Notes: generated by a model from the sequence alone, not told the origin. A stretch of 64,000 nucleotides of DNA from Holophagales bacterium UBA5704 (GCA_002420005.1 DIHE01000147.1:36006-100005); one strand, 5' to 3'; counted from the first letter of the stretch, positions 12,071 to 30,347 are shown. Program-made: numbers and translations.

Positions 12071-12271
12071 GTGCGAAATCGCACCGCCCGAGGTCCCGCG
12101 GCGAGAGATGCTGGAGCCGCCAACGCCGCGCCCTCCGCGATAGGGCGCGGTGCCCATGATGCGTCCGCCGGGGCCAGAATCCCTCCGGCGGCGCCTTTTT
12201 TCCTTCAGCGCCCTGCACCCTCCCTCCTCCCTCGGAATTCTTTCTGTGCCTGTGCCGAATCGCACCGGTGC
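12071..12271. promoter_or_regulatory. Divergent promoter region with two copies of an imperfect-palindrome motif GTGC(C)GAA(A)TCGCAC and an 8-bp hairpin
   Basis: GTGCGAAATCGCAC 12071-12084; GTGCCGAATCGCACCGGTGC 12252-12271 (contains perfect palindrome GCACCGGTGC); CGCGCCCT-N7-AGGGCGCG 12127-12149; lies between divergent COG0523 gene and RiPP precursor. Confidence 0.3.
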
Positions 12272-12610: not shown

Positions 12611-12635
12611 CGACCTGGAGCTTGCAGGAGGCACC

Positions 12636-13460: not shown

Positions 13461-14041
13461 ACGCCCAGGGACCGATCCTCGCCCTCTGCGGCAGCCTGCG
13501 CCACCCGTCGCGCACCCGCCAGGCCCTGGAACGCGCGCTCGCCGCAGCGGCGCGCCTGGGGGCCGCCACCGAGCTCCTCGCCGGGGAGCCGTTGCGCCTC
13601 CCCCTCTGCGACGGCCGCCCGGAGGCCGAGATCCCGCCCGCGGTGGCGGAGCTGCGGCACCGGGCGCGGGCCGCCGCGGCCCTGCTCCTCGGCTCGCCGG
13701 AGTACTGCGGCACCTACTCGGCGGTGATCAAGAACGTCGTCGAATGGCTCGGCCCCTCGATCCTGCAGGGCAAGGTGGTGGGCGTGGTCACCGTCGCCGA
13801 GGGGCCGAGCGCGCAGGGGTCCTTGCGCGCGCTGCGCGAGCTGTGCCTGCTCGAAGGTGCCTGGGTGGTGCCGGCCGCCGCGGCCATCCCGCTGGTCGAG
13901 CAGGTGTTCGCACAGCCGTCCGCGCCGCTGGCGGTCTCGGTGCTGCGCCACCTCGACGCCCTCGGCAAAGCCCTGCCGGGCGCCCTCCGCCGCCTGCACG
14001 GCCCTTCCGGCCGGCCTCCCGCGGAGGGTCTGCCGGCATGA
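13457..14041 (+). CDS. NAD(P)H-dependent FMN reductase (flavodoxin-like fold, SsuE/ArsH-like)
   Basis: ILALCGSLRHPSRT...LLLGSPEYCGTYSAVIKNVVEW motif of NADPH-dependent FMN reductase family; ATGA overlaps both neighbours. Confidence 0.7.
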   Translation: MNAQGPILALCGSLRHPSRTRQALERALAAAARLGAATELLAGEPLRLPLCDGRPEAEIPPAVAELRHRARAAAALLLGSPEYCGTYSAVIKNVVEWLGPSILQGKVVGVVTVAEGPSAQGSLRALRELCLLEGAWVVPAAAAIPLVEQVFAQPSAPLAVSVLRHLDALGKALPGALRRLHGPSGRPPAEGLPA

Positions 14042-15627
14042 GGGGGCGCAACGTCCCCTGCGTGCACGCCGGGCTCCGAGTGGAGGCGCCGGACGGGGTG
14101 CGGCTCGCGACGGACGTCTACCGGCCCGGCGCCGGACGGCCGGTGCCGGCGGTCCTGCTGCGCACCTACCTGGGCAAGGCGCGGCACCAGGAGGAGGCGC
14201 TGGCCTGGGTGCGCGAAGGCTTCGCCTGCGTGGTTCAGGACGTGCGGGGCCGCTACGACTCGGACGGCTCCTGGGAACCCTATGTCCACGAGCGGGCGGA
14301 TGGCGCCGCGGCGGCGCGCTGGACCGCCGGGCAGCCCTGGTGCGACGGCCGCGTGGTGGTGGCCGGCGGCTCGTATGGCGCCTTCACCGCCTGGGCGGCG
14401 GCCCTGGAGAGCCCGGTGGTGCGGGCGGCGGCGGTCTCCGTCCCCGCCATGCACCGGGTGAATTTCGCACCCGGCGGGGTGCTCAAGCTGCTCAATCACA
14501 CCGCCTGGTGGATGGCGCACGGAGACGCCCGCACCGAGCGGACCCGTCTGTTCGAGGCGATGTGCAGAGCCTGCCCGGATCTCCTCGCACGCCTGCCGGT
14601 CTGCGCTCTGCCACCGAATGTCTGGGCCGCGCTGCCCGGTTGGCTCCCCGCAGCCCTCGCCGGCCCCGGACGGCCCGCGGTCTCCGACGCGGATCTCGCC
14701 GGGCTCGCCCTGCCGGTGCTCCACATCGGAGGCTGGCACGATCCGTTCATCGCCCAGACGATCCACCAGCAGGCGACCGCCGGATCGGCCGTGGCGCCTC
14801 GGCCCATCCGCCGGATCATCGTCGGCCCCTGGACCCACGAGCTGCACAGCCACGTGCCCGCGGTCTATGGCGCGCGCACCTACGGGCCGGCCTCCCGCCT
14901 GCCGCTGGGGCGCCTGCAGGCCGAGTTCTTCCGCGGAGCCCTCGCGGATTGCACCGCGCCGGCGGCGCAGCTTTTTCTCACCGGTGCGAACCGCTGGCTC
15001 ACAGGGGACGGCTGGCCGCCGGTGCCGGTCGCGCCGTGCACCTGGTTTGCCTCCGCGGGCGGCGCTCTCGCTCCGGAGCCGCCCCGCGCCGGGGGCTCCG
15101 TCTCGTTCTCCTACGATCCCCTCTCCCCCTATCCCGGCCGCAACGGCCCGGTCGACCAGAGCGATCTGCTGCGCCGGCCGGACACCACCGCGTTCACCTC
15201 CCCACCGCTCGCCGCGCCGCTCACCTGGATCGGCGGACCGCGGGTGATCCTCCACGCCGCCACCGACGCCCCCGGCACCGACTGGGTCGCCCGCCTGCAT
15301 GAGGTCTTGCCGGATGGCCGCAGCCTCTACCTCGGCCATGGCCTGGTGGACGCGGCGCAGGAGCTCGCCCGCGACGGCGGAAAGCTCGTGCCGGGCGAGG
15401 CTCACCGGGTGGAGATCGACCTGCCCCCGCTCGCCATCACCCTCCCGGCAGGGCACCGGCTCCGCCTGGAGATCACCAGCAGCGACTTCCCGGCCCATGC
15501 GCGCAACCTGAACACCGGTGCCTGCCGCCTGACCACCTCGGCGACCCGGGTGGCGCGGCAGACGATCCTCCATGGACCCTCGGCTCCCACGGCCCTGGTG
15601 CTGCCGGTGGCACAGGAGCTCCCGTGA
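14038..15627 (+). CDS. CocE/NonD-family alpha/beta hydrolase (S15 X-Pro dipeptidyl-peptidase-like)
   Basis: Nucleophile elbow VVAGGSYGAF, S15-family N-terminal region (DGVRLATDVYRP), C-terminal beta-sandwich; translationally coupled within RiPP operon. Confidence 0.7.
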   Translation: MRGRNVPCVHAGLRVEAPDGVRLATDVYRPGAGRPVPAVLLRTYLGKARHQEEALAWVREGFACVVQDVRGRYDSDGSWEPYVHERADGAAAARWTAGQPWCDGRVVVAGGSYGAFTAWAAALESPVVRAAAVSVPAMHRVNFAPGGVLKLLNHTAWWMAHGDARTERTRLFEAMCRACPDLLARLPVCALPPNVWAALPGWLPAALAGPGRPAVSDADLAGLALPVLHIGGWHDPFIAQTIHQQATAGSAVAPRPIRRIIVGPWTHELHSHVPAVYGARTYGPASRLPLGRLQAEFFRGALADCTAPAAQLFLTGANRWLTGDGWPPVPVAPCTWFASAGGALAPEPPRAGGSVSFSYDPLSPYPGRNGPVDQSDLLRRPDTTAFTSPPLAAPLTWIGGPRVILHAATDAPGTDWVARLHEVLPDGRSLYLGHGLVDAAQELARDGGKLVPGEAHRVEIDLPPLAITLPAGHRLRLEITSSDFPAHARNLNTGACRLTTSATRVARQTILHGPSAPTALVLPVAQELP

Positions 15628-16988
15628 GCGATCCCCTGAAGCTCCTGGTCGATCCGCGCTTCGGCATCGTCACCGCGCTGGAGCGGCGCATGCATCCGCC
15701 GGAGGTGCCGCCGGCCCTGATCTCCTACACGGCACGGGTCGCCGACACCCGGCGGCTGGGTGCCTGGCAAGGGGACCGGGTGGCCCTCGGCTCCGCCTTC
15801 TGGGACGAGGACCGGGCGCGCCGCGCGGCGCTCGGCGAAGCGGTGGAACGCACCTGCGGCAACTTCGTCCCCGCCGGGCTGCTGCGCGCCTCGCACCGCG
15901 ACCTGCGCACGGCCGGCGAGCCGGCCCTCGATCCCGCCGCGATGGTGCTCTATGCGGACTCGCAGTACGACCACCGCGGCTTCCCCTTCGTCCGCTTCAC
16001 CGACGACCTGCGGGTGCTCTGGACGACCGGCCGCGATCTCGCGACCGGAGAGGCGGTGCGGGTGCCCGCGTCGTTCGTCTACATCAACTACTACGGCGGC
16101 GCCCTGGCCGGCGAGCCGAGGACGAACTTCGTCCTCTACTCCGGAATCGCCACCGGGCCGAATCGGGAGGCGGCGGAGGAGGCGGCCCTGGAGGAGCTCA
16201 TCGAGCGCGACGCCACCATGATCTGGTGGATGTCCGGCAGCCCGGCCGTCGGCATTCCTCTGGAAAGCGCACCGATGGTCCGCGCCGCTCTCGCCCATCC
16301 CGCCGACCACGGTACGCTGCACCATCACCTGATCCAGATCCGCACCCCTTTCGACGTGCCGGTGGTCGGCGCCCTGGTGCAGGACACGGAGCTGTCCCTG
16401 ATCGGGCTCGGCGTGGCCTGCCGCCCCGATCCCGGACAGGCCGCTCTCAAGGCGCTGGTCGAGGCGATCCACCTGCGCTGCTTCAGCCGCCAGATGCTCG
16501 ATCCCGGCGGCAGCGTCTGGCGCTCCATGCGCTCCGGAATCCTCGACCCCCGCGCCTACAAACCCTTCCGCGCCGACCGCGCCTACCGGGATGCGTACCG
16601 CGCCGACTTCCGCGACGTGACCGACCTCGGAGCCCAGTCGCAGATCTATCTCGACCCCCGGATGCACGTCCACGCCGACCGCATCCTCCACCCTGCCGCC
16701 TGGGCCCCCCTGGATCGGCTGCCCGCCGTCCCGGGCCGCGCCGCCTACCGGCAACGGCTCGCCGCGCGCGGCTTCCGGGCGATCTCGGTGGACGTCACCA
16801 CGCCGGACGTGCAGGCCGCCGGCTTGTGCGTCGTGCGGGTGATCGTCCCGGGGCTCTACCCGAACGCGCCCGCCGCCTTCCCGTTCCTCGGCGGGCGCCG
16901 GCTGTATGAAGAGCCGGCGGCGCTCGGCTGGCTCCCGGCGCCGCTCACCGAGGCCGACCTGGTCCGCGTCCCCCTGCCGCACACATGA
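15624..16988 (+). CDS. YcaO-domain cyclodehydratase (azoline-forming type, C-terminal Pro-rich motif)
   Basis: YcaO ATP-binding glutamate motifs (LGEAVERTCGN, LEELIERDA), C-terminal VRVPLPHT PxP motif; GTGA/ATGA overlaps. Confidence 0.85.
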   Translation: MSDPLKLLVDPRFGIVTALERRMHPPEVPPALISYTARVADTRRLGAWQGDRVALGSAFWDEDRARRAALGEAVERTCGNFVPAGLLRASHRDLRTAGEPALDPAAMVLYADSQYDHRGFPFVRFTDDLRVLWTTGRDLATGEAVRVPASFVYINYYGGALAGEPRTNFVLYSGIATGPNREAAEEAALEELIERDATMIWWMSGSPAVGIPLESAPMVRAALAHPADHGTLHHHLIQIRTPFDVPVVGALVQDTELSLIGLGVACRPDPGQAALKALVEAIHLRCFSRQMLDPGGSVWRSMRSGILDPRAYKPFRADRAYRDAYRADFRDVTDLGAQSQIYLDPRMHVHADRILHPAAWAPLDRLPAVPGRAAYRQRLAARGFRAISVDVTTPDVQAAGLCVVRVIVPGLYPNAPAAFPFLGGRRLYEEPAALGWLPAPLTEADLVRVPLPHT

Positions 16989-18292
16989 GCGAGCCGCCCG
17001 TCCTCGCCTACCACCGGCGGAGCAAGAACCGTCCGGGCCGCCCCGCCGCGGCACCCCGGAGGCTCGACCGCTCCATCGAGCCGGTCCCCTTCCGGCGCTA
17101 CCGCGGTGCCGCCCTGCTCCCCCTGCCGGAGATCCCGCCGGTGGACGGCCCGGCCTGGGGGGAGCTGTTCATCCCCGGCGCCGTCGCCCCTGCACCGCTC
17201 GACCGGGAGGCCGTGGCCCGCCTGTTCTTCGACTCCCTGGCGATCTCCGCCTGGCGCGAGGAGGCCGGCGCCCGCTTCTCGTTCCGGGTGAACCCCTCCG
17301 CCGGCAACCTCCATCCGACCGAGGCCTATCTCCTCGCCGGCCCCCTGCCCGGGCTGCACGACCGGGCCGCCCTCTACCACTACTCACCGTTCGACCACGC
17401 CCTGGAGATCCGCGCCGATCTGCCGGACGGCGGCGTGCCGCCCGGCACCCTCCTTCTCGGATTCACCTCGATCCTCTGGCGCACCGCCTGGAAATACGGC
17501 GAGCGCGCCTTCCGCCTCGCCCGGCTCGACGCGGGGCATGCCCTCGCCGCGGTCACCTGGGCCGCCGCGGCCCTGGGCTGGGAAGCGCGGCAGGTGGAGA
17601 TCGGCGACGCGGCGCTGGCGCGCCTGCTGGGTGTCGCCGCGCAGGAAGGGCCGGAACGCGAGGAACCGGTGGCCCTGCTCGCCCTCGGAGCCCCGCCCGA
17701 CGCCCGGCCCGGGGCGCCGGGGGACGGCGGCCGTCCGAACCGGATCAGCCCCGGCCACCGGAGCTGGCCGGCGCTCGACGCCGTCACCGCGGCCACCCGC
17801 CACCCGGGTGCGGAGCGGCAGGCCGCACCGGGTGCGGAGACGGCGCGCGCCGTCCTGCGCGGCCGGCGAAGCCCGGCGGCGTTCGCGGGCGCCTTGGGAG
17901 CGGAGGAAATTTCCCGGGTTTTTGCCGGTGGACTTTCTCGCCCGTTCGTGCAGCGGCCCCTGCTGCGGGTCGAACGTCTGCTCCCGGGCGACGGCGTGGA
18001 CCTTCGCCGCCTGGCCGGCCACCAGAGCTTCGCGGCCGGCGCCTCCTGCCTCGCGGTGCTGCTGGGTGACCTGGAGCCGGCGCTCGCCCCCGGCGGCGCC
18101 TGGCTCTACCGCCGGCTGCATGAGGAGGCCGGAGCGATCGGGCACGCGCTCTCCCTGGAGGCGGCGGCGCAGGGCCTGGGAGCGCGGGGCATCGGCGGAT
18201 TTCTCGACGACGAGGTTCTGGCCGCTCTCGGGTTGCCGGCGGAGGGCCGGTGGCAGGCCCTGTATCTGTTGGCGGTGGGGCGGCCGGCGTGA
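16985..18292 (+). CDS. SagB-type (McbC-like) FMN-dependent dehydrogenase, nitroreductase superfamily
   Basis: FSFRVNPSAGNLHPTEAYL signature of SagB/ThcOx dehydrogenases; two nitroreductase-like halves. Confidence 0.8.
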   Translation: MSEPPVLAYHRRSKNRPGRPAAAPRRLDRSIEPVPFRRYRGAALLPLPEIPPVDGPAWGELFIPGAVAPAPLDREAVARLFFDSLAISAWREEAGARFSFRVNPSAGNLHPTEAYLLAGPLPGLHDRAALYHYSPFDHALEIRADLPDGGVPPGTLLLGFTSILWRTAWKYGERAFRLARLDAGHALAAVTWAAAALGWEARQVEIGDAALARLLGVAAQEGPEREEPVALLALGAPPDARPGAPGDGGRPNRISPGHRSWPALDAVTAATRHPGAERQAAPGAETARAVLRGRRSPAAFAGALGAEEISRVFAGGLSRPFVQRPLLRVERLLPGDGVDLRRLAGHQSFAAGASCLAVLLGDLEPALAPGGAWLYRRLHEEAGAIGHALSLEAAAQGLGARGIGGFLDDEVLAALGLPAEGRWQALYLLAVGRPA

Positions 18293-19602
18293 AGGCCTTC
18301 GGTCGCCTCGTCGATCCCCGGCTGGGCCTCCTGCGCCGCCTCGCCCTGGAGCCGCTGCCGCCGCACCTCCCCCCCGGCCTCTGCCAGGCCCGCGCCGAGA
18401 TCGCCGACAGCCGCGCCTTCTCCCCCTGGACGAGCGACGCCGCCGCGGCCGGGCTCGCCTGGTGGAACGCGGAGGCGGCCCGCGCCGCGGCGGTTGGTGA
18501 GGCGGTCGAGCGCTATTGCGGCAACGTCGTGCCCACCGGGCTGCGGCGCGCTTCCTACGCCGAGCTCGCCGCCGGTGGTGGGGCGGCCCTCGATCCGGCG
18601 GATCTCGCCCTCTATGCCCCGGAGCAGTATCGCCGGCGCGGTTTCCCCTTTGTGCCGTTCACCCGCGACCTGCAGGTGCTGTGGACCACGGGCTTCGATC
18701 TGGCCACCGGGGACTCCGTGGCCGTCCCGGCCTCCTGGGTGTGGACCTCGTGGAGCACCGGGCCGGCGGCCGGCGAGCCGAAGACCCACGGCACGATCTA
18801 CGCAGGCATCGCGGCCGGCCCGTCCCGGGAGGAGGCCGAGCGCAGCGCTCTCGCGGAGCTCGTGGAACGCGATGCGGTCCACCTCGCCTGGACGGCCGGC
18901 GTCCCCCTCCCCCGGCTCACGCCACCGGCCTGGATGGAGCCCTTGCTCACCGCTGCGCGCGGGGCGGTCACCGCCGAGCTGTACCTCTTCCCCAACGCCT
19001 TCGGCCTGCCGGTCGTCGGCGCCCTCCTGCGCGACCGGGAGGCCGGCGTGGTGACCCTGGGCCAGGCCTGCCGCACCACACCCGTCGACGCGGCCCTCAA
19101 AGCGGTGGCCGAGGCCGCCCAGCTCAACCTGGTCGCCCGCGCCCTGGCCGACCCGCAAACCGGCCTCGCCGACCGCCTCGCCGCCGTCCCCGGCGCCGCG
19201 CTCCATCCCTGGCGGGCCGACCGCGGCTACGCCGCGCTCTACGGTCCCCTCTGGCGCGGCGCCCGCGATCTCCTGTGCCATCTCCAGCTCCATCTCGATC
19301 CGGCTCTGCACAAGCCCCTCGCCGATCGGCTCGCCACCGGAGGCACCCGGCCCCTGGCCGACCTCCCCGCCGCCGGCCCCGAAACCCGGGAGACCTACCT
19401 GACGCGCCTGCACGCCCGCGGCTTCCGCGCCGTCTCGGTCGACGTCACCACCTCCGACGTCGCCCCGACGGGCCTGCGCGTCGTCCGGGTCGTGGTCCCC
19501 GGGCTCTACGCCAATGCCCCCGCCGCCTTCCCCTATCTGGGAGGACGGCGGCTGGCGGAGGCGGGCGGGGTGCGCTGCACCCTGCCGCCTCCCTATGCGT
19601 GA
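18289..19602 (+). CDS. Second YcaO-domain protein, paralogue of 15624-16988
   Basis: GEAVERYCGN / LAELVERDA motifs; C-terminal block VSVDVTTSDVAPTGLRVVRVVVPGLYANAPAAFPYLGGRRL nearly identical to first YcaO; GTG 18289 overlaps SagB stop; ends LPPPYA. Confidence 0.85.
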   Translation: MKAFGRLVDPRLGLLRRLALEPLPPHLPPGLCQARAEIADSRAFSPWTSDAAAAGLAWWNAEAARAAAVGEAVERYCGNVVPTGLRRASYAELAAGGGAALDPADLALYAPEQYRRRGFPFVPFTRDLQVLWTTGFDLATGDSVAVPASWVWTSWSTGPAAGEPKTHGTIYAGIAAGPSREEAERSALAELVERDAVHLAWTAGVPLPRLTPPAWMEPLLTAARGAVTAELYLFPNAFGLPVVGALLRDREAGVVTLGQACRTTPVDAALKAVAEAAQLNLVARALADPQTGLADRLAAVPGAALHPWRADRGYAALYGPLWRGARDLLCHLQLHLDPALHKPLADRLATGGTRPLADLPAAGPETRETYLTRLHARGFRAVSVDVTTSDVAPTGLRVVRVVVPGLYANAPAAFPYLGGRRLAEAGGVRCTLPPPYA

Positions 19603-19676: not shown

Positions 19677-19706
19677 GCGGGAGCTTACTGTATAATAGGG
19701 GAGAAT
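19677..19706 (+). promoter_or_regulatory. Putative sigma70-type promoter (TGACTC-N18-TATAAT) for island genes
   Basis: Perfect TATAAT at 19701-19706 in locally AT-rich DNA, 150 nt upstream of lipoprotein ATG. Confidence 0.35.
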
Positions 19707-19857
19707 GAAATCGCTCCTGAAGGGCACCCTACCAACTCCCAAGCTCTCGGAGGGGCGTTCTGATACAGGAGTGTAGCCAGAGCCTTCTTCTCGCCGCAAA
19801 TAGAACTCGGCGAAGCCTGGGCAATGCTGGGCGTCGCCACCATGAGGGAGAAACGCT

Positions 19858-20277: not shown

Positions 20278-20389
20278 CCCCGCTGAGCCTGGCAAGGGCG
20301 GTGCCCCCCATTCATCACAGGCGCGAGGTTCGCCCCTCCGGGAAGACTTCTCGCGGAGAACGGTCGCTCACACTCAAGGGGTTCTTGGA

Positions 20390-22080: not shown

Positions 22081-22827
22081 TCAGTGCCGGACGCAGAACC
22101 GCTCCCCGCCCGGGGTGCGCACCACGCTGAGCACGCCCCGGCGGCGGAGCTGGCTGAGCAGGCGGGTGACGGTGGCCCGGGTGCCTCCGACCGCCGAGGC
22201 GATCTGCGCGTGGGTCAGCCGGACGTCGAGCAGCAGGCCGCGGGGATGCGGCCGGCCGAAGGGCTCGGCGAGCAGATGGAGGATGCCCAGCACCCGCTGC
22301 TCCATGTGCGGCCGGGCCTGCATGGAGGCCCAGGCCTCCATCTGCCGCAGCCGGTACCGCAGCCGCTCGGCCAGCTCGGGCTGACGGATCGCCTCGACCC
22401 AGGTGTGGGTGCGGACCTCGACCTCGGTGTGGGCGGTCAGCTCGAGGGCGCAGCCATGGGCCGGATGCCCCGGCAGAAGCCGGCCGGGGCCGAACAGGCC
22501 CAGCAGGACCTCCGCGCCGTCCGCATGCAGCGCGGTAAGCGCCACCACCCCCTCCTTCACTTCGAGAACCGCGTCGTCCGGCAACGAGATGAGCTGCCCC
22601 TGGCGATAGCGGTGCCGGCGGTGGGCCGCCGGGGCCGGAGCGGGGGGCGGCGGGGCCGGCGCCACGGCCGGGCCGGCGGCCATCGACGACAGCACGCTGC
22701 GCACCGTGCGTTCCATCTGATCCGGCGGCAGGTCGTCCGACACGAGGGTGATGCAGCACTCGCCGCCGAGCAGGCCGGCGAGATCGGTGGCGCGTTCTTT
22801 CGGGCCGAGAAACACCAGATGATGCAT
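22081..22827 (-). CDS. Crp/Fnr-family transcriptional regulator with ~60-aa N-terminal extension
   Basis: cNMP-binding beta-roll region followed by HTH THAQIASAVGGTRATVTRLLSQLRRRGVL; GAGGAG RBS. Confidence 0.75.
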   Translation of the reverse strand: MHHLVFLGPKERATDLAGLLGGECCITLVSDDLPPDQMERTVRSVLSSMAAGPAVAPAPPPPAPAPAAHRRHRYRQGQLISLPDDAVLEVKEGVVALTALHADGAEVLLGLFGPGRLLPGHPAHGCALELTAHTEVEVRTHTWVEAIRQPELAERLRYRLRQMEAWASMQARPHMEQRVLGILHLLAEPFGRPHPRGLLLDVRLTHAQIASAVGGTRATVTRLLSQLRRRGVLSVVRTPGGERFCVRH

Positions 22828-22839
22828 GACGACATCTCC

Positions 22840-25278
22840 TCACTCGTTGCGCAGGGCGACCTGGGGGTCCACCCGCATCGCCCGTCGCGCCGGCACCCAG
22901 CCGGCGACGAGAGCCACCGCGGCCAGCAGGCACGCCACCGCGGCGAAGGTCCATGGATCGACCGGCTGCACGCCGTAGAGCAGCCCCGCCAGGGTCCGGG
23001 AGAGCAACAACGCTCCCAGCCCACCGGCCACCAGGCCCACACCGGTGAGCCGCAGGGCCTCGCCCAGCACCTCGCGCCGGACCTCCCCCGGCGCCGCGCC
23101 GAGGGCCATGCGGACACCGATCTCCCGCGTCCTCCGCCCCACCGAGAAGGCCAGGACGCCGTAGAGGCCGGTCGCCGCCAGAGCCAGGGCGAGAAGGGCG
23201 AAGCCGCCAAACAGAAGGCCCGCGAGACGCTGCCGCCAGACCGTGTCCAGCACCCGCCGGCGCAGGGTGCGGAAGTCGTCGACCGGCTGGTCGGGATCGA
23301 CCGCGGCCACGGCGCGGCGCACCGGCTCGATCAGCGCCTCCGGCCTCCCCGCGCCCGGACGCAGGCGCACCGCCACGTGAAACCAGCCGTCCGGCACCTG
23401 CCGCGCCGAGAGGTACACGGCGTACCCCGGCGGCTGCAGCAGATCGTCGTGGCGCACGTCGCCCGCGATCCCGACCACCGTCAGCCAGGGCGACTCCTCC
23501 ACCCGGCCGTCGATCCGGCGCAGCCGGCGGCCCAGAGCGGAGCCGTCCGGCCAGAGGAGGCGGGCCAGCCGGTGACCGATCACGGCGGTGCGCGGCGCCC
23601 CCTCGCGGTCCTCCTCGCCGAGCGGACGCCCGCTCTCCAGAGGGATGCGCAGCGTGGCGAAGTAGCCCGGGGTGACGGTCTGGAAATGCACATAGGGGTT
23701 GCGGGTCCCGGCCTCCGCAGGCTGCCCTTCGGCCAGAACCAGCCCGCGGTCGGGCCGGTCGGCGCCGGCCAGGGGGAGGTTGGTGTTGAGCGCCGCCGAG
23801 GCGACTCCGGGAAGCGCTTCGACCTTCGCCAGCAGGTCACGCTGGAAGGGGACGATCCGCTCCTCCGGGTAGGTCCAGGGCAACGCCAGGCGGAAGGTGA
23901 GCACGCCGTCGGGATCGAAGCCCGCCGGCACCTGCCAGATCGCCACAAAGGTCCGCGTCAGGAGGCCGGCTCCCACCAGAAGCATCAAGGAGAGCGCCAC
24001 CTCGACGACGACCAGGGCGGCGCGCAGCCGGCGGTGCTCCACGCCGCCGACGGCCCCCTTGGCCGTACCCGCCTGGAGGGCGGCCAGCAGCCGCCCGGAG
24101 CCGGCGCGGACGGCCGGGAGAAGCCCGGCTCCGAGACCCACCAGAAACGCCACCAGGAAGGTGAACGCCACCACCCGACCATCCAGGCGGGCCTCCATCC
24201 AGAGAGGAAGGTCGAGGCGCACGGCCGCGGCGATCCCGCGCAAGCACCCGAAGGCGACCAGGAGGCCCAAGGCGCCGCCGAGGAACGAGAGCAACAGGCT
24301 CTCCGCCAGGAGCTGCCGGAGCACCGCGCCCCGCCCTGCGCCGAGCGCAAAGCGCAGCGCGATCTCCCGCTCCCGCTCCAGAGCCCGGGCCAGCAGGAGG
24401 TTCGCCACGTTGACGCAGGCGATCAGCAGAACCAGCAGAACCGCCCCGGCGATCAGCAGCAGATACGGCCGGATCGGCCCGACAGAGCTCTCGCGCAGAG
24501 AGAGGAGCCGCAGCTCCACCCCGCCATTGGTGGCCGGCTCGGTGCGCTGCAACGTCTTGCCCAGCGCCGCCACGGCGGCGGCGGCCTGCTCCAGCGAGAC
24601 GCCGGGGCGCAACCGCGCCAACACCACCACCCGGCGCACCGAGCGGTCCTCCAGGTTGGGGAAGAACCGGCTGATGTAGAGCGAGCGGTAGAGGTCGGTC
24701 TGCGCCGGCAGCTCGATGCCCTCGGGAAGGACGCCGAACACGGTATAGGACGGGCGCTGTGCCGGCGAGGCGTCGAGGGTCACCGTACGCCCCACCACTG
24801 CGGGATCGCCGCCGAGCTTCCGCTTCCAGACACGATGGCTGAGCACGATGCCGAAGTTGCGGGAGCGGTCGAACTCCTCCGGCCAGGGGCCGCCGTGGAG
24901 AAACGAGACGCCGAGCACCCGGAAGAGGTTCTGGCTCGCCACGATGGCCGGGAGCTTCTCGGGATCGCCCGCGCCGGAGAGCGTATAGGCCGAGTCGGGA
25001 ACGTAGGCCGCCACCTCGGTGAACACGGAGGTCCGCTCGCGCAGGTCGAGCACCTCGCGCATCGCGAGCGGCCCGCGCTCGCCACCGCGCACCGTCTCCA
25101 GCCGCACCAGCCGGTCGGGGTCGCGAAAGGGCGGAGGCTGAAGCAGGACGGCGTCGATCACACTGAACACGGCGGCGTTCGCGCCGATCCCCAGGCCGAG
25201 CGTGACGAGGATCAAGGCGGTGACCGCCGGCCGCCGGGCCAGGGATCGCCAGGCGGCCCGCAGCAGCGGCGGGGTCAT
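22840..25278 (-). CDS. ABC transporter permease, FtsX/MacB-like, duplicated FtsX (4+4 TM) with large periplasmic domains
   Basis: 813 aa; two MacB_PCD/FtsX modules (LLARALEREREIALRFALGA..., VGRRTREIGVRMALGAAPG...); ATG 25278 overlaps upstream ATPase stop. Confidence 0.8.
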   Translation of the reverse strand: MTPPLLRAAWRSLARRPAVTALILVTLGLGIGANAAVFSVIDAVLLQPPPFRDPDRLVRLETVRGGERGPLAMREVLDLRERTSVFTEVAAYVPDSAYTLSGAGDPEKLPAIVASQNLFRVLGVSFLHGGPWPEEFDRSRNFGIVLSHRVWKRKLGGDPAVVGRTVTLDASPAQRPSYTVFGVLPEGIELPAQTDLYRSLYISRFFPNLEDRSVRRVVVLARLRPGVSLEQAAAAVAALGKTLQRTEPATNGGVELRLLSLRESSVGPIRPYLLLIAGAVLLVLLIACVNVANLLLARALEREREIALRFALGAGRGAVLRQLLAESLLLSFLGGALGLLVAFGCLRGIAAAVRLDLPLWMEARLDGRVVAFTFLVAFLVGLGAGLLPAVRAGSGRLLAALQAGTAKGAVGGVEHRRLRAALVVVEVALSLMLLVGAGLLTRTFVAIWQVPAGFDPDGVLTFRLALPWTYPEERIVPFQRDLLAKVEALPGVASAALNTNLPLAGADRPDRGLVLAEGQPAEAGTRNPYVHFQTVTPGYFATLRIPLESGRPLGEEDREGAPRTAVIGHRLARLLWPDGSALGRRLRRIDGRVEESPWLTVVGIAGDVRHDDLLQPPGYAVYLSARQVPDGWFHVAVRLRPGAGRPEALIEPVRRAVAAVDPDQPVDDFRTLRRRVLDTVWRQRLAGLLFGGFALLALALAATGLYGVLAFSVGRRTREIGVRMALGAAPGEVRREVLGEALRLTGVGLVAGGLGALLLSRTLAGLLYGVQPVDPWTFAAVACLLAAVALVAGWVPARRAMRVDPQVALRNE

Positions 25279-26063
25279 GACACCCTCCCGGGCAGGGCGA
25301 CCATCTCGGCCACCGCGGAGCCGAACGTCCGCTCGAAGACGCCGGACTCGATCAGCTCCCCGGCGCCGCCGGCCACCAGCGGCCCTCCCTTGGGCAGCAG
25401 CCAGAGGCGGTCGGCGTTGCGCAGGGCCAGCTCCAGATCGTGGGTCGACAGGAGGACGGCCTTGCCTTCGTCGTGCGCCAGCCGGCGCAGGATGCGCAGA
25501 ACCTCCACCCGGTGCGGCAGGTCGAGGAACGCCGTCACCTCGTCGAGGAGCAGCACCTCCGGCTCCTGCGCCAGGGCGCGCGCGATCATCACCTTTTGCC
25601 GCTCGCCGTCCGACAGCTCGGCGACGCTGCGGCCGGCCAGGTCCTGCGCTCCCACGGCGGCGAGGGACCGTTGGACGATCGCGTGATCGGCCGCGGCGAG
25701 CCGCCCCGACCAACCGGTGTACGGGTAGCGGCCGAGCTCCACCAGGGCGGTGGCGGTGAGCGCCTCGACGACGATGCGGTCGGTGAGCACCACGGCGAGA
25801 TGGCGGGCCAGCCGCCGCGGCCCCAGCTCCCGCAGATCCTCGCCGGCGACCACCACCCGCCCGGCGAGCGGCGGCTGCATGCCGGCCAGCGTGCGCAGCA
25901 AGGTGGACTTGCCGGCGCCGTTCGGCCCCAGGAAACAGACGAGCTCGCCGCGGCGCAGCACCGTCTCGATACCCTCCAGCACCGGCCGCGGCCGGCGATG
26001 CCGGACATAGCCGACCGCAAGCCCTTCGACGCGGAGCGGGGGCCGGTTTGCGTCGTCTCTCAT
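25275..26063 (-). CDS. ABC transporter ATP-binding protein (FepC/FecE/BtuD-like)
   Basis: Walker A GPNGAGKST, signature LSDGERQKV, Walker B LLLDEVT; ATGA overlaps on both sides. Confidence 0.85.
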   Translation of the reverse strand: MRDDANRPPLRVEGLAVGYVRHRRPRPVLEGIETVLRRGELVCFLGPNGAGKSTLLRTLAGMQPPLAGRVVVAGEDLRELGPRRLARHLAVVLTDRIVVEALTATALVELGRYPYTGWSGRLAAADHAIVQRSLAAVGAQDLAGRSVAELSDGERQKVMIARALAQEPEVLLLDEVTAFLDLPHRVEVLRILRRLAHDEGKAVLLSTHDLELALRNADRLWLLPKGGPLVAGGAGELIESGVFERTFGSAVAEMVALPGRVS

Positions 26064-27091
26064 AGCTCCAGGGCCCTCCCGCGGCGTTGGCGCAGGATCA
26101 CCCAGAGGACGACCGGCGCTCCGACCAGCGCGTTGACGGCGTTCAGATGCAGAAAATGGCGGTCCCAGGGGAGATGGACGATCAGGTCCGCGCCCAGGGC
26201 GAGGAGCGCCCCCAGGAGAGCCACCCCCGGCACCAGCCGCCGGTGGTCCGAGGTGCGCAGCAGGCCCCGGCCGAGATGGGGGACGGCGATGTCGAGAAAC
26301 GCGATGGCCCCGCAATACGCCGTCACGGTGCCGGCGAGGACGACCGTCCCCAGGAGCGCCGCGGTGCGCACGCCACCCACCGCGGCCCCCAGCGACCGCG
26401 CGTAGCGCTCGCCGAGCAGGAGCGCATTGAGCGGCTTCACCAGGAGCACCGCACCGAGGAGACCCGCCAGCAGAGCGGGGACGAGCACCCCCAGCCGCGC
26501 CGGGGTGACGCCGCCGAAGCTGCCATCCAGCCAGTTGGAGAAGATCCGGCTCTGGGTCTCGGTGGTGAAGTGGAGGACCAGGCTGACCAGACCCTGCGAC
26601 AAATACCCGAACATCAACCCGACGATGAGCAAGGTGACCGCGCTCACCTGCCGCGCAGCCGCGGTGACCGCCAGCAGCACCAGAGACGCACCGAGGAAGG
26701 CCCCGGCGGTCAGCGACAGCTCGCCGAGCCAGGCGAGGCGCGCCAGGAGCTCCGAGCCCACCGCCGCCGCCGCGGTCACCACCAGGGCCACGCCGAGCTG
26801 CGCCCCGGCCGTGACGCCGAGCGCCCAGGGGCCGGCGAGGGGATTGCGGAAGAGTGTCTGCATCTGGAGCCCCGCGACCGCCAGGGCGGCGCCGGACAAC
26901 GCCGCCGCCAACGCCCGCGGCAGGCGCAGCTCGAAGAGGATGGTCGACCAGGTGGCCTTCGCCGCCGCACCGCCACCGAGAAGGGAGAGCACGTCGCGCA
27001 GCGGAATGGCCACCGAGCCGATCGACAGGCTGAGCAGAAACAGGGCCACCACCGCGACGGCCAACAGCAGGAGCAAGGCGCCGGATCGCAT
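26060..27091 (-). CDS. FecCD-family iron-siderophore/cobalamin ABC permease
   Basis: ~10 TM segments, BtuC/FhuB-like motifs; ATG overlapping SBP stop. Confidence 0.8.
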   Translation of the reverse strand: MRSGALLLLLAVAVVALFLLSLSIGSVAIPLRDVLSLLGGGAAAKATWSTILFELRLPRALAAALSGAALAVAGLQMQTLFRNPLAGPWALGVTAGAQLGVALVVTAAAAVGSELLARLAWLGELSLTAGAFLGASLVLLAVTAAARQVSAVTLLIVGLMFGYLSQGLVSLVLHFTTETQSRIFSNWLDGSFGGVTPARLGVLVPALLAGLLGAVLLVKPLNALLLGERYARSLGAAVGGVRTAALLGTVVLAGTVTAYCGAIAFLDIAVPHLGRGLLRTSDHRRLVPGVALLGALLALGADLIVHLPWDRHFLHLNAVNALVGAPVVLWVILRQRRGRALEL

Positions 27092-28293
27092 CACCCTCTC
27101 TCCACCGCGGCGAAGAACAACGGCCGATGGCCGGGCAGCAGGTCCGGATGGAGCACCGCCACCAGATCGGCCAGCACCAGGTCCGGCCGCACCAGGGCGG
27201 TCTCGTTCCAGTCGTAGGCCCCGGTGGCGAGATCGACCCGCCGGTGGTAGTGCCAGGCGCGTCCCTCGCGCCAGGCGCGCAGCGCGTTCAGATCGAACCG
27301 GGCGTTCCACTCCCGCTCGCTCCGCGCGTTGGTGATCCACACCTCGGCGCTCCCCGCCCGATCGAGCAGGGCTCCGGTGTCCAGCGCCGCCCAGGGGCCG
27401 GCCGTGGGGTCGGCGAGCACGTTCACCGCCCCCGCCTCGGCGAGCAGCCGCGCCTCCGGCCCGCTGCGCTCCACCCACCAGCGGTCGCCGTCCGTGGGAC
27501 CGCCCCAGAAGGCCGTCCGCGGGGCCGGCACGGTGCGCGCCGTCTCCGCCAGCTCCTGATAGCGGCTTTCCACGCCGGCATAGAAGCGCTCCGCCGCGGC
27601 CTCCGCATTGAAGAAGAGGGCGACATATTTCACCCATTCCGCCTGGGCGAGCACGTCCGACTCCGACCACGCATAGGTGGGCGCGGCGGCGAGACCCAGC
27701 GCGCGGAGCCGCCGTGGCCCTTCGGCGCGGGCCGGATCGGCCGCGAAGAGAAGCGTCAGGTCCGGCCGCAGCTCGACGAGCGTCTCGTAGTTGGGTGCCC
27801 CGTGCGAGGCGTCGCCGATCAGCGGCAGCTCCCCCGCCTCCCAACGCCGCCGCAGAACCGGATCGAAGATCTTCTCGCTGCCCAGGGCGACGATCCGCTC
27901 CGCCAGCCCCAGGGCCGTGAGCCGGGCCGCGTCGCTCGGCGCCCCCACCGCCACCGTCCGCGCCGGCACCTCGACCACCGACGCCCCGGCGAGCTCTCCG
28001 GTGAGCGGCGGCGCCGGCGTGCCGCATTGGACCAGGACCAGCGTCTCCTCGCCGCGCCCTCCGCCGTGCCCGTCGCGCGCCCGCAGCCGCACCACCTTGT
28101 AGTGGCCGGCATAAGTCACCGAGAAGTGGGCCGCGTGGCGAATCTCCACCTTGTCCGGGAAGAGATCGGCTCCCACCTCGAACCGCTCGACACACCCCGC
28201 CCGGATCGGCTCCGCCGCGGGAGCACCCACAACACCGCCCCGGCCGCAACCGGCCAACGCGAGGGTCCCCAGCACCAGGAGGGCACGCCTCAT
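27091..28293 (-). CDS. Periplasmic substrate-binding lipoprotein (TroA/BtuF-like class III SBP)
   Basis: Lipobox LALAGCG; conserved PBP fold residues; start ATG 28293 (MRRALLVLG) overlapping TBDR stop. Confidence 0.7.
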   Translation of the reverse strand: MRRALLVLGTLALAGCGRGGVVGAPAAEPIRAGCVERFEVGADLFPDKVEIRHAAHFSVTYAGHYKVVRLRARDGHGGGRGEETLVLVQCGTPAPPLTGELAGASVVEVPARTVAVGAPSDAARLTALGLAERIVALGSEKIFDPVLRRRWEAGELPLIGDASHGAPNYETLVELRPDLTLLFAADPARAEGPRRLRALGLAAAPTYAWSESDVLAQAEWVKYVALFFNAEAAAERFYAGVESRYQELAETARTVPAPRTAFWGGPTDGDRWWVERSGPEARLLAEAGAVNVLADPTAGPWAALDTGALLDRAGSAEVWITNARSEREWNARFDLNALRAWREGRAWHYHRRVDLATGAYDWNETALVRPDLVLADLVAVLHPDLLPGHRPLFFAAVERG

Positions 28294-30347
28294 GGGCGCG
28301 GCCCCATCTGCCAACGGACACCGCCGAAGATCTGGCGCGGCGCACCGAGCGTCCGGCCGCCGAACGTGCCGATGGCGTAGCGCTCCCCCGCCAGGTTCTC
28401 GACGAGCGCGAACAGCTCGAGCCCGTGCCCCACGGGAACCGAGGCGAACAGGTCGACCACCTGGTGGGCGTCGAGCGCCGTGCGGTTCTGACCGTCGACG
28501 AACCGCTCGCCGAGATGGCGACCGCGCACCGTCACGCCGCCCCCCCGGGCGGGGGCATAGCGCAGCGAGAGCGACGCGGCCTCCTCGGAGACGCCGGGAA
28601 GCCTCTTCCCTTCGAGCGTCCGGTTCACCGGGTTCTCCCGGATCACCGCATCCGTCCAGGTGTAGGAGGCCGTCGCCGACCAGGACTCGCCGAAGCGCAG
28701 GTCGAGCATCGTCTCCACCCCGTCGCTGCGGCTGCGGTCGACGTTCTGCGCCTCCAGCGTGAAGACCGGGACGAAGCGGGTGGCCACGTAGGTGATCCGA
28801 TCGCCCACCTCGTTGCGGAAGGCGTTGACCTGCGCGCGCAGCGGGCCGGCTGTGAGGTCGATCCCCACCTCGGCGCCTTCCAGGATCTCGGGCTTCAGGT
28901 CCGGATTGGCCAGCAGCTCCGAGCCGGTGAGCGAGGTGGACCGGTAGAGCTCATCCAGATTGGGGGCACGAAACGCCCGGTAGGCGGAGCCCCGCAGGGC
29001 GAACCCGGGCCGAAGCTGCCAGCGCAGGGCCAGACGCGGATTGACCTCCGTGGCGGTCTGGTCCGGAAAGCGGATCGAGCCCCCCGGACGCAGCGTCTGC
29101 TGGCCGTCACGGTTGCGCCAATGGTCGAGCCGGGCACCCAGAAGGATTTCAAAAGTGGCAGCAGGGAAGACGCTCACCTCGGCGAACAGACCCGCGGACT
29201 CCTGCGTGCCACCGCCGATCTGGAGCCGGTCGAACACCCCCGGGGCCTTGAAGTTGCGCGACCGGTCCTCGCCTTCGATACGGCGCAGGTCGACGCCGGC
29301 CACCACCGAAGAGACGCGGGGACCCGGCGCTCCGGTCCACACCGCCGAGAGGCCCGCGTCCCGGCTCGGCGTCACGTGCGCGTTCGACACGTACTCGCTC
29401 GTCCGGCCCCCGAAGAACGGCACCTCCACGTTGTCCGTCCGCATCTCACGGTCGCGGAAGAAGAAGCGGGCGTCGAGCAGCCCGTCCTCCCCCAAGCGGC
29501 TCCGACCGCCGGCCGCGAGGTCCCAACCCTCCCGGGAGTGGCGGCTCAAACGGGTACCGGCATTCCCCTCCTGGTCGAGCGCCCCGCCCCGCACGAACCA
29601 GCTCAGAGAGGGCGTCGCCTGGCCCTCCACCCGAACCTGAAGATCCAGCGCCTCGGAACGCGACGGCACGTCGATCGGTCCGCGCGCCGCGGGCTCCAGG
29701 GTCAGATAGCCGTCGGTGTCGGAGCGGTTTGCGTTGACGCTCCAGCCGAGGTCGTCGCGCAGCCTCCGGGCTCCGTAGAGGTTGAGCTGCGACGTCCCGT
29801 GCGAGCCGTAGAGCGCCCGTGCGGTGAGCGCCCGGCCGGCGATGGGACGGGTGAGCAGCTGGATGGTCCCGCCCAGGGCATAGCTGCCGTACAGGCTGGA
29901 GCCGCCACCGCGCGCCACCTCCACCCGGTCCAGCGCTTCGAGCGGAGCGGCATCGAACGCGGTGAATCCGAAAAACGGATCGTTCATCGGCTCGCCGTCG
30001 AGCAGCACCAGGGCACGCCCGCCGCCCAGACCGCGCATCGAGACGAAGCTCGCGAGCGGATGGAGCACCACACTGCTGCCGAGCGGCAGGCTCACCCCCG
30101 CCACCGTGCGCAACAGGCCGTCCGTGGTGAGCGCCGGAGCGGTTTCGATGTCCTCGCGGCCGATCACCGACACGCTCACCGGCACCGTCTCGGCCGACCG
30201 TTCGCTGCGCGTCGCCGTCACCGTGATCTCCTCGCGCAGCTCTCCTTGCGGCTCTCTGCGCGGCTCCTGTGCAAAAGCCCCGGCCGCCAACAGCAACCCC
30301 ACGCCGGCCGCGAGGCGGCCGGCCCTCCACGTTCTGCTTTTCGTCAT
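28290..30347 (-). CDS. TonB-dependent outer-membrane receptor
   Basis: Signal peptide, TonB box-like EEITVTATR, plug domain then beta-barrel repeats; heads the ABC importer operon. Confidence 0.85.
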   Translation of the reverse strand: MTKSRTWRAGRLAAGVGLLLAAGAFAQEPRREPQGELREEITVTATRSERSAETVPVSVSVIGREDIETAPALTTDGLLRTVAGVSLPLGSSVVLHPLASFVSMRGLGGGRALVLLDGEPMNDPFFGFTAFDAAPLEALDRVEVARGGGSSLYGSYALGGTIQLLTRPIAGRALTARALYGSHGTSQLNLYGARRLRDDLGWSVNANRSDTDGYLTLEPAARGPIDVPSRSEALDLQVRVEGQATPSLSWFVRGGALDQEGNAGTRLSRHSREGWDLAAGGRSRLGEDGLLDARFFFRDREMRTDNVEVPFFGGRTSEYVSNAHVTPSRDAGLSAVWTGAPGPRVSSVVAGVDLRRIEGEDRSRNFKAPGVFDRLQIGGGTQESAGLFAEVSVFPAATFEILLGARLDHWRNRDGQQTLRPGGSIRFPDQTATEVNPRLALRWQLRPGFALRGSAYRAFRAPNLDELYRSTSLTGSELLANPDLKPEILEGAEVGIDLTAGPLRAQVNAFRNEVGDRITYVATRFVPVFTLEAQNVDRSRSDGVETMLDLRFGESWSATASYTWTDAVIRENPVNRTLEGKRLPGVSEEAASLSLRYAPARGGGVTVRGRHLGERFVDGQNRTALDAHQVVDLFASVPVGHGLELFALVENLAGERYAIGTFGGRTLGAPRQIFGGVRWQMGPRP

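Follow-up and report, generated by a model that had tools for sequence, protein, structure and literature searches.

The 64,000-nucleotide stretch of the metagenome-assembled genome (MAG) of Holophagales bacterium UBA5704 that was analysed here (GCA_002420005.1, DIHE01000147.1:36006-100005; hereafter the window) carries on its plus strand, at 12410-19602, a single operon of seven genes for a peptide that is made on ribosomes and modified after translation (RiPP). Their order is precursor, RiPP recognition element (RRE)/E1-like protein, flavin mononucleotide (FMN) reductase, S15 hydrolase, YcaO-1, SagB-type dehydrogenase and YcaO-2 (Table 1). Judged from its genes, the operon belongs to the streptamidine (ami) family, in its two-YcaO branch, and it is best explained as an ami-family operon in which two intact, anciently diverged YcaO enzymes and one RRE/E1 protein probably divide the labour on one precursor. 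As all five junctions downstream from the 274-aa E1-like gene are ATGA or GTGA overlaps, the genes are translationally coupled.

Both YcaO proteins match PF02624 (cut-off 25.7) with scores of 185.6 and 186.1 bits (E about 1e-54), and both lie above the TIGR03604 cut-off of 219.25, YcaO-1 with 278 and YcaO-2 with 244.8 bits, as SagD-type cyclodehydratases of the YcaO superfamily do. In BLASTP they share 48% identity over 408 aa (E=1e-94), which bears out the initial annotation of this DNA in its claim of two paralogous YcaO genes within one operon; the N-terminal motifs that it quoted and a C-terminal block of 41 aa (32/41 identical) were both found, as was a dehydrogenase gene between the two YcaO genes, a member of the nitroreductase/SagB type. 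Its description of the N-terminal regions as divergent does not hold, with a sliding comparison in 40-aa windows giving 50-72% identity for aa 41-200, 28-38% for aa 200-360 and 61-75% for aa 359-436. The divergent parts of the pair are the middle (aa 200-360), which diverges most, and the extreme C-terminal tail, where YcaO-2 is 12 residues shorter. Nor is the "near-identical" C-terminal block a special feature shared by these two proteins, as it is the most conserved part of the whole family: members from other phyla likewise keep the block, xVDxTTxDVxxxGLxVVRVVVPGLxxNAPAAFPxLGGxRL, as well as the N-terminal LVDxRxG motif, and in alignments with LynD, TruD and MusD the motif falls at the beginning of the YcaO domain and the block at its end. 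Third-codon identity is 0.50 in the C-terminal block and 0.53 overall; because it equals the background, the block is held by selection, and a recent duplication or gene conversion behind it is ruled out. YcaO-2 is 47-50% identical to the YcaO-1 orthologues of other genomes, no less than to its own neighbour.

A scan of one genome per species gave 80 related loci (numbered below with the prefix L), of which approximately 45 carry two YcaO genes, mostly directly adjacent and with the same E1-like protein and S15 hydrolase upstream. These two-YcaO loci are found in Actinomycetota, Chloroflexota and Acidobacteriota, the hosts including Streptomyces, Frankia, Rhodococcus fascians, Amycolatopsis, Pseudonocardia, Egibacteraceae, Anaerolineae, Dehalococcoidia and Thermoanaerobaculia. 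In a neighbour-joining tree the upstream copies (p1) and the downstream copies (p2) fall into separate groups, with the single-YcaO (AmiD-like) and E1-fused YcaO proteins grouping with p1. Across the 38 loci used for the identity comparison, the pairwise identities of p1 and of p2 are tightly correlated (Mantel r=0.92, reached by 0 of 2000 permutations), so the two copies have been inherited together. Mean identity among loci is 0.49 for p1 and 0.425 for p2, while that between p1 and p2 within a locus is 0.377, and in 90% of comparisons the greater divergence is found in p2. The metagenomic relatives of YcaO-2 (L085-L089) have an adjacent p1 gene in every case. By these comparisons the pair consists of two old orthologous groups travelling together across phyla, rather than of a recent tandem duplication, or of a local duplication kept within the operon as had been proposed. 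The separation of the two genes by the dehydrogenase, earlier regarded as a meaningful arrangement, is likewise seen to be an incidental variant of gene order: the YcaO genes abut in most loci, and the dehydrogenase gene separates them in L085 and L086 as it does in the window, but follows YcaO-2 in L007, L087, L088 and L089.

The residues with which the YcaO of E. coli (Ec-YcaO) binds ATP and Mg2+ are reported to be E75/E78, E199/E202/R203 and R286/E290. In an alignment with hhalign to a family profile, Ec-YcaO E199, E202, R203, R286 and E290 correspond to E191, E194, R195, K276 and E280 of YcaO-1, with E72/E75 (in GEAVER) being matched by motif only as the other Glu pair; YcaO-1 thus carries E72, E75, R76, E191, E194, R195, K276 and E280. 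Ec-YcaO E202 has been used as the residue for knocking out the ATP site (PMC13063428). The ATP/Mg2+ motif residues are 97-100% conserved in both YcaO clades, and in the 39 two-YcaO loci used for the clade comparison (39 p1 and 39 p2 sequences) E72, E75, R76, E191, E194, R195, K276, E280, R316, R319, Q340, D344, T392, R405 and the terminal PxP are 90-100% conserved. The ATP/Mg residues are also invariant in a 48-sequence alignment centred on YcaO-2. The loss of such residues had been suggested initially as the mark of a pseudoenzyme; they are intact in both copies, and their conservation speaks against YcaO-2 being a pseudoenzyme.

Both proteins also have the proline-rich, PxPxP-like ends of azoline-forming YcaO proteins (…VPLPHT in YcaO-1, …LPPPYA in YcaO-2), and either clade conserves the two Pro columns of this end at 100%. 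Work by Dunbar and colleagues in 2014 reportedly implicated the proline-rich terminus of the YcaO proteins of thiazole/oxazole-modified microcins (TOMMs) in recognising the E1-like protein. The AlphaFold2 model of YcaO-2 has a predicted local distance difference test (pLDDT) score of 95.4 (95-96 in the tail) and a predicted template modelling score of 0.94, and its Foldseek matches are LynD (E=3e-21), MusD, TruD, archaeal thioamidating YcaO proteins, Ec-YcaO and McbD. The sequence matches of YcaO-1 in the PDB are MusD, TruD and LynD, with the tail included in the alignment. Sequence and predicted fold mark both proteins as competent enzymes, predicted to activate backbone amides in an ATP-dependent manner.

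The two clades differ in the tail, with YcaO-1 possessing a full LynD-like C-terminal tail (…RLYEEPAALGWLPAPLTEADLVRVPLPHT) and YcaO-2 a shortened one (…RLAEAGGVRCTLPPPYA) that lacks the 12-aa segment YEEPAALGWLPAPLTEADL. The segment Y-x-x-P-x-x-LGW-x-x-x-PLTE-x-DL is absent from every p2, while it stands before the terminal PLPH in p1, AmiD-type proteins, LynD, TruD and MusD; YcaO-1 shares with the last three the tail RLY-x-P-x-x-LGW…PLTE…P-x-P and a WW motif, and YcaO-2 is without LGW…LTE. Several residues that are invariant in p1 have been lost or relaxed in p2, namely W201 (from the WW motif just mentioned), E164, E190, W299 and G305, with partial relaxation at N80, D196, R267, N414 and R426. 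The p2 clade has in turn its own conserved residues, these being L, Y, C and L at alignment columns 436, 449, 477 and 496. On this pattern of conservation, the loss in the p2 tail and the clade-specific residues represent specialisation rather than decay. That the two enzymes are redundant isozymes, or that YcaO-2 is decaying into a pseudoenzyme, would fit with its faster evolution and the loss of part of its tail, but is most improbable given that the pair has been kept in at least 45 loci of several phyla, in separate clades of congruent divergence, with invariant catalytic residues, a confident predicted fold that includes the tail (pLDDT 95-96) and a YcaO-2 open reading frame (ORF) that is intact and translationally coupled.

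The 274-aa E1-like protein has no Pfam match, and TIGR03882 ("TOMM precursor leader peptide-binding protein") is matched below threshold (E=3e-7). Its profile found no match among PDB sequences even at E<=1; hhalign, in contrast, aligned it at a probability of 96.6% with a fused E1-YcaO protein of 777 aa, over residues 59-310 of the latter, the C-terminal half of which is a TruD/LynD-like YcaO domain. An AlphaFold2 model built with 21 homologues (pLDDT 91.8) begins with a small region of strands and helices, after which comes an alpha/beta domain. Foldseek places the RRE/E1 domains at the N-termini of LynD (E=5e-14) and TruD first among its matches, ahead of MccB, McbB, PaaA and UBA5. The gene starts at 12693 in the MAG annotation, while the TTG at 12636 has AGGAGG upstream. 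With its identity confirmed by the predicted fold, exactly one E1-like partner is encoded, in agreement with the earlier statement of a single such partner. Fused proteins are found in L059, L062 and L063 (Holophagae, Acanthopleuribacter, Chloroflexales), where two or three tandem E1-fused YcaO genes of approximately 750-780 aa each represent a different multi-YcaO architecture in the wider family.

From the single partner it had been suggested that one YcaO may act without it in the manner of bottromycin enzymes. This is not supported here, as both copies keep the proline-rich terminus; the sole hint in its favour, a weak one, is that the distances of the E1-like protein follow YcaO-1 more than YcaO-2. 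Bottromycin does offer a precedent for two YcaO paralogues, BotC and BotCD, working on one follower-bearing precursor (with a thiazoline formed by one and a macroamidine by the other). Its YcaO proteins work without an E1-like partner (PMC8442711), whereas the window encodes an E1-like/RRE protein, and its precursor and accessory genes are unrelated to those of the window, the shared homology being known at the level of the YcaO superfamily.

The streptamidine family comprises more than 230 clusters of Actinobacteria and Firmicutes around a standalone YcaO (Russell et al., 2021; PMC8442711). The ami genes include amiA for the precursor, amiB for a cryptic RRE/E1-like protein, amiC for a hydrolase, amiD for the YcaO, amiE for a flavin dehydrogenase which is essential although the product shows no visible oxidation, amiF1-4 for a Fec-type transporter, and amiT (PMC8442711). 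Streptamidine itself is HLSATH with a six-membered amidine linking the His1 amine and the Leu2 carbonyl (PMC8442711). Two precursor motifs were described in the supplement of that study, motif A (…EQLA-HLSATH-SNALVENPFD) and motif B (…APQGPGTNALVHNPFAF, usually present twice) (PMC8442711). Since motif A reads in this way, the streptamidine core lies upstream of ALV and the ALV-NPF part is a follower. A subset in Frankia, Rhodococcus and Clavibacter with two YcaO proteins and motif B precursors was noted there but left uncharacterised (PMC8442711).

The precursor of the window is a peptide of 47 aa (MDFKNDIFEAVSATLSEDPVHSNTHNHALVHNPFAWEEDETSTPDAE) with the layout MDFKNDIFEAVSATLSEDP-VHSNTH-NHALVHNPFAWEEDETSTPDAE, these three parts being the leader, core and follower predicted by homology to streptamidine AmiA, and the Network 1 ALV motif is present in it as HNHALVHNPFAWEE. 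It aligns without gaps to motif A (VHSNTH-NH-ALVHNPFAW with HLSATH-SN-ALVENPFD), the two sharing Ser(-6), Thr(-4) and His(-3), and also to the motif B precursors APQGPGTNALVHNPFAF (PMC8442711 supplement). Compared with motif B (…QGPGTNALVHNPFAF…), it is the follower half ALVHNPFAW that matches, while VHSNTHNH resembles HLSATHSN of motif A and not QGPGTN; as read from these alignments, the precursor is a hybrid of motifs A and B. Against NF040715 ("streptamidine-related RiPP repeat protein"), a model that describes two-repeat precursors, this single-repeat precursor scores 24.1 bits (cut-off 45) over residues 27-38 only.

Orthologues of the precursor are present in L085-L088, L007, L004, L053 and L065, and the core is shared by the nearest relatives, in which the corresponding region reads PVHSNTHNH in L085, IVHTNTHNH in L086, PVHTNTHNH in L087, TVHTNSHNH in L007 and TVHSNTHCN in L088, and an (I/V)F-E motif recurs in all leaders. 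YcaO-1 clusters with YcaO proteins found beside motif A precursors (L073, L076, L078, L079 and L082) and beside motif B precursors in the neighbour-joining tree, which is without support values. The accessory set of the family is also present in the window, with an E1-like fold, S15 hydrolase, nitroreductase-family gene, FecB, FecCD and ABC ATPase. No precursor feature was found that strictly separates two-YcaO from one-YcaO loci, with FxW followers occurring in both.

Other precursors of the family show further variation. A third two-YcaO subclade (L008, L010, L015, L016, L019, L021-L023, L027, L033 and L042) is marked by short precursors, which read …L-HSSNH-A-x(6-8)-(F/V/I)AW(R/K)-stop and are without the ALV motif, and by YcaO-2 tails with a distinctive DPLP insertion. 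Two close relatives of YcaO-1, in L006 (Lysobacteraceae MAG) and L065 (Paenibacillus oralis), are accompanied by an FMN reductase with no YcaO-2 detected nearby; as the precursor of L065 is …DPHHHALVHNPFVWEDQE, YcaO-2 can be missing even with a motif-B-type follower. In two-repeat precursors (L009, L013, L020, L032 and others) the follower of the first repeat and the residues next to it (…NPFAF-EEL…) echo the leader motif (…LAF-EEL…), and DIFEAV of the window leader resembles PFAWEED of its follower in the same way. The "follower" may thereby double as a second recognition sequence.

Set against streptamidine of Streptomyces albidoflavus J1074 (PMC8442711), the window has in common an ALV-NPF follower with a His/Ser/Thr core that aligns without gaps, an AmiB-like RRE/E1 protein without a Pfam match, an AmiC-type hydrolase (S15 in the window), a YcaO of the YcaO-1 clade, a dehydrogenase of the nitroreductase superfamily, and linked Fec-type and ABC transporters. 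Unlike streptamidine it has a second YcaO, an FMN reductase and a motif B-type follower (HNPFAW, not ENPFD), and it comes from a diderm host, an Acidobacteriota MAG in which a TonB-dependent receptor is encoded, the family having been reported only from Actinobacteria and Firmicutes (PMC8442711). The likeness to the two-YcaO motif B subset (PMC8442711) extends to two standalone YcaO proteins, an E1-like protein, an S15 hydrolase and an ALV(H/Q)NPFA(F/W) follower, and the upstream and downstream YcaO proteins of the subset are orthologous to YcaO-1 and YcaO-2, respectively. In the subset, however, the YcaO genes abut, usually with no SagB-type gene between them, and the precursors mostly have two APQGPGTNALVHNPFAF repeats and no His-rich core, while the window has one repeat, a motif-A-like core, an FMN reductase and, between its YcaO genes, a SagB gene with its Lys-Tyr pair intact.

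With regard to the other enzymes of the operon, the hydrolase scores 280 bits against TIGR00976 (cut-off 66), and S15 hydrolase homologues adjoin the YcaO gene in 45 related loci, motif A loci included. The FMN reductase is limited to a few loci (L004, L006, L053, L065 and L085). The dehydrogenase scores 73.3 bits against TIGR03605 (cut-off 78.4), passes PF00881 and has the two-domain nitroreductase 3eo7 as its PDB match (E=2.5e-28), and the NCBI name for a fragment of it is "SagB-type dehydrogenase". Its FMN motif RVxPSAGNLHP (RVNPSAGNLHP in the window) and WKYGERAFR, which holds a Lys-Tyr pair, are invariant in six orthologues. The Lys-Tyr pair is said, from work on BcerB, to be important in azoline dehydrogenases. 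The importance of the pair is also indicated by KY of McbC (PMC8442711). As phmmer with the SagB protein was too insensitive for AmiE-type nitroreductases, a hidden Markov model from eight seeds was used instead, and it found nitroreductase-family genes linked to 10/46 two-YcaO genome loci and to 5/5 motif A loci. The closest relatives of the window have a gene for a class I S-adenosylmethionine-dependent methyltransferase between the S15 hydrolase and YcaO-1 (L085 3435-4271, L086 4866-5705, L087 6832-7695 and L088 5314-6189), which the window is without, the stop of its hydrolase gene overlapping the start of YcaO-1 at this position.

By analogy with streptamidine and klebsazolicin, we infer the following steps. 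The leader, in which an (I/V)F-E motif is conserved, would be bound by the RRE of the E1-like protein. YcaO-1 with E1 would activate the amide that precedes the conserved Ser/Thr and so cyclodehydrate the predicted core V-H-S-N-T-H, a sequence that matches x-x-S-x-T-H of the streptamidine core HLSATH. Removal of the leader by the S15 hydrolase would then yield a free N-terminus, upon which a six-membered N-terminal amidine could close as in streptamidine. YcaO-2 would supply a second amide activation, the candidates for which are the second Ser/Thr, amidine closure on the cleaved peptide or removal of the follower; in the first case an azoline would be formed and then oxidised by the SagB dehydrogenase with its intact Lys-Tyr pair. 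YcaO-1 and YcaO-2 may well act as a hetero-oligomer meanwhile. In mirror-tree comparisons the partial correlation of the E1-like protein is 0.43 with YcaO-1 and 0.13 with YcaO-2, and that of the S15 hydrolase is 0.51 with YcaO-2 and 0.18 with YcaO-1, values which derive from non-independent pairs and allow no valid significance test. Together with the E1 fusions, which are confined to the YcaO-1-type clade, and the difference in the tails, this soft evidence suggests that the two YcaO proteins have different partners.

A number of points weigh against the division of labour set out above. In addition to the non-independence of the mirror-tree pairs, the precursor and the E1-like protein lie under the cut-offs of NF040715 and TIGR03882, the neighbour-joining tree is midpoint-rooted without bootstrap and places the YcaO-2 clade as a grade, and no characterised product of a two-YcaO or motif B cluster was found in the literature searched. 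For streptamidine a single YcaO suffices, and what its dehydrogenase does is cryptic; the substrate position of the second YcaO is therefore a guess. Since most two-YcaO loci have no linked nitroreductase gene and the cores of motif B (APQGPGTN) carry a single Thr, a "second azole" is not the general role of YcaO-2. A YcaO-2 that is independent of the partner is disfavoured by the proline-rich terminus which both proteins keep.

YcaO enzymes are normally dimers, and the main alternative, which is rather doubtful, is an obligate hetero-oligomer responsible for a single type of modification. Having turned into a heterodimer after duplication, the pair would here consist of a YcaO-1 that contacts E1/RRE and a YcaO-2 that is a specialised ATP-binding second protomer (for example, allosteric, or with just one face active), with the same amidine/azoline chemistry that AmiD performs alone. 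The pair is indeed strictly co-inherited and usually adjacent or overlapping, it has a single E1-like partner, and YcaO-2 evolves faster, is relaxed at N80, D196, W201, R267, N414 and R426, has a shortened tail and belongs to a clade that is never alone within these data. However, the ATP/Mg residues and terminal PxP of YcaO-2 are kept at 90-100% across phyla, which would be needless for a purely structural subunit, its clade-specific conserved residues indicate a function of its own and not decay, and single-YcaO relatives manage with one enzyme.

An unlikely alternative is that YcaO-2 catalyses a reaction that leaves no heterocycle, this being either an ATP-dependent, MusD-like excision of the follower (NH)ALVHNPFAWEE… or backbone thioamidation. 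MusD carries out ATP-dependent follower excision for muscoride (PMC10885120). Release of a streptamidine-like hexapeptide requires that the follower be removed while a single hydrolase is encoded, the NPF-x-(W/F) motif of the follower is conserved in two-YcaO loci, and the distances of YcaO-2 follow those of the hydrolase. However, similarity to MusD is a general trait of YcaO domains of the cyanobactin type, one in which YcaO-2 does not surpass YcaO-1, and FxW followers are also found in the single-YcaO loci L034, L041, L065 and L077. Thioamidation is opposed by scores of 53-56 bits against TIGR03266 (cut-off 365) and by the lack of a TfuA or sulfur-transfer gene in the operon, which, when compared with the YcaO-TfuA thioamidation systems, is without a TfuA-like ORF.

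The division of labour between two YcaO enzymes is the preferred explanation. In a more specific and only tentative form of it, the YcaO-2 clade would be a dedicated second catalyst with chemistry unlike that of the AmiD type, either leader-independent closure of the N-terminal amidine on the peptide freed by the S15 hydrolase or MusD-like, ATP-dependent excision of the ALVHNPFAW follower, with the two YcaO enzymes forming a relay and diderm hosts re-importing His-rich, metallophore-like products (VHSNTHNH, CNHNH, HHH) via the adjacent TonB-dependent receptor and Fec system.

Among other characterised systems, klebsazolicin (KlpBCD) and microcin B17 (McbBCD) follow the same logic of RRE/E1, YcaO and FMN dehydrogenase as the window, the model of its E1-like protein matching McbB and that of YcaO-2 matching McbD. 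In klebsazolicin one YcaO makes the azoles and, after leader removal, the N-terminal six-membered amidine. The two systems differ from the window in their single YcaO, their Cys/Ser-rich cores and the lack of an S15 hydrolase. The best matches with a solved structure for both YcaO proteins and the E1-like protein are LynD, TruD and MusD, which are single fused polypeptides, while in the window the domains are split into separate genes.

Table 1. Features of the two-YcaO operon and of the linked regulatory and transport genes in the window
Feature	Coordinates	Strand	Evidence and remarks
Divergent promoter region, cobW-like gene / precursor	12071..12265	.	Two copies of palindrome GTGCGAAATCGCAC
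Precursor peptide gene, 47 aa	12410..12553	+	AGGAGG 8 nt 5′ of ATG; called as gene in MAG annotation
Predicted RRE + E1-like partner (AmiB / TOMM "C protein" type), 274 aa	12636..13460	+	Weak TIGR03882, AlphaFold2 fold
NADPH-dependent FMN reductase, 194 aa	13457..14041	+	PF03358 E=3e-28; ATGA overlap with E1-like gene
CocE/NonD (peptidase S15) hydrolase, 529 aa, AmiC-type candidate leader peptidase	14038..15627	+	PF02129, PF08530, TIGR00976
YcaO-1, 454 aa, AmiD-type clade	15624..16988	+	PF02624, TIGR03604
SagB-type FMN dehydrogenase, 435 aa, two nitroreductase halves	16985..18292	+	PF00881; AmiE counterpart at superfamily level
YcaO-2, 437 aa from GTG 18289	18289..19602 (ORF open from 18250)	+	PF02624, TIGR03604, AlphaFold2 model
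Crp-family regulator	22081-22827	-	Pfam
MacB/FtsX permease	22840-25278	-	Pfam
ABC ATPase	25275-26063	-	Pfam
FecCD permease	26060-27100	-	Pfam
FecB-like binding protein	27091-28314	-	Pfam
TonB-dependent receptor	28290-30347	-	Pfam

The start of YcaO-2 in the public MAG annotation is GTG 18250, which overlaps the SagB gene by 43 nt. GTG 18289 overlaps the SagB stop as GTGA, resembling the other four junctions, and gives an N-terminus equal in length to that of YcaO-1; it is on this basis the more likely start. The window has a G+C content of 66-75%, and the same stretch of 21 kb is found on contig DAIMFI010000002.1 of GCA_036724675.1. Protein records from an "Acidobacteria bacterium" MAG include a near-identical YcaO-1 fragment and a SagB gene fragment. 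With tblastn no further YcaO, E1-like, hydrolase or SagB gene was detected in the 64-kb window, nor was a second precursor found elsewhere in it, and the remainder is housekeeping in nature (GroEL, cytochrome c552, gamma-glutamyltranspeptidase and UvrD-like helicase). A low-GC island (19700-22050; 0.58 against approximately 0.73) separates the biosynthetic operon from the genes for the regulator and the transporter. In it are a toxin-antitoxin pair of the YefM-like/YoeB kind (21551-21790, 21787-22044) and hypothetical ORFs without a Pfam match. Relatives have other toxin-antitoxin-like genes at the same position, namely UPF0175 in L085 and a PIN-domain gene in L087.

The regulator and transport genes (22081..30347, minus strand) converge on the operon, and their counterparts in the streptamidine cluster are amiF1-F4 and amiT (PMC8442711). 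Linked Crp, FecCD or TonB genes are seen in L085, L086, L087, L007 and L053 as well. The 14-bp palindrome GTGCGAAATCGCAC has copies at 12071-12084 and 12252-12265, between the cobW-like gene and the precursor, with three matches in the window against 0.59 expected, and it is present 130-182 nt 5′ of the precursor ATG in L085, L086, L004, L053 and L088, which are of different lineages. It is likely to be an operator for the accompanying Crp/FNR-family regulator. A second conserved element (GTGACGTGCC), approximately 55 nt 5′ of the precursor ATG, is common to the window, L085, L086 and L004; in the window the conserved stretch at about 12320-12370 reads …TCATTCGGCAGGCCTGCCGGA…GCGACGTGCCGCC…, and the window and L085 share the GC-rich inverted repeat GGCAGGCCTGCC. 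This element or inverted repeat may be a structure of the 5′ untranslated region or a second operator. An Rfam scan of the conserved 5′ region matched no family and gave one sub-threshold chance hit.

Divergent from the precursor promoter is a gene for a CobW/COG0523-type GTPase (10777-12123, minus strand), a family of metallochaperones. In L086 a TonB receptor adjoins the precursor, and the predicted cores of the window subclade are His-rich (VHSNTHNH, CNHNH, HHH and HGH). The cobW and TonB/Fec genes together with these cores hint at a product that is metallophore-like or re-imported. Streptamidine itself, however, was found not to bind metal (PMC8442711). An iModulon preprint gives nothing relevant on metal regulation of the ami cluster.

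The presence of two YcaO proteins in one streptamidine-type cluster was already noted in 2021 (PMC8442711), and the arrangement will not surprise a specialist. What is new is that the pair is recognised as two orthologous groups of ancient separation, both having their sites intact and the second being diagnosed by its tail deletion, that the family is extended beyond Actinobacteria and Firmicutes to Acidobacteriota and Chloroflexota, and that a hybrid precursor and a YcaO-SagB-YcaO arrangement with an FMN reductase occur together with TonB/Fec uptake genes. Ribosomal peptides containing an amidine are rare, the examples being bottromycin, klebsazolicin and streptamidine. The subclade of the window, in which a streptamidine-like core and a motif B follower are combined with a SagB dehydrogenase that has its Lys-Tyr pair intact and with TonB/Fec uptake genes, provides a compact, seven-gene test case for what a second YcaO adds to amidine/azoline chemistry, and it could show whether streptamidine-type peptides are tied to metal uptake.

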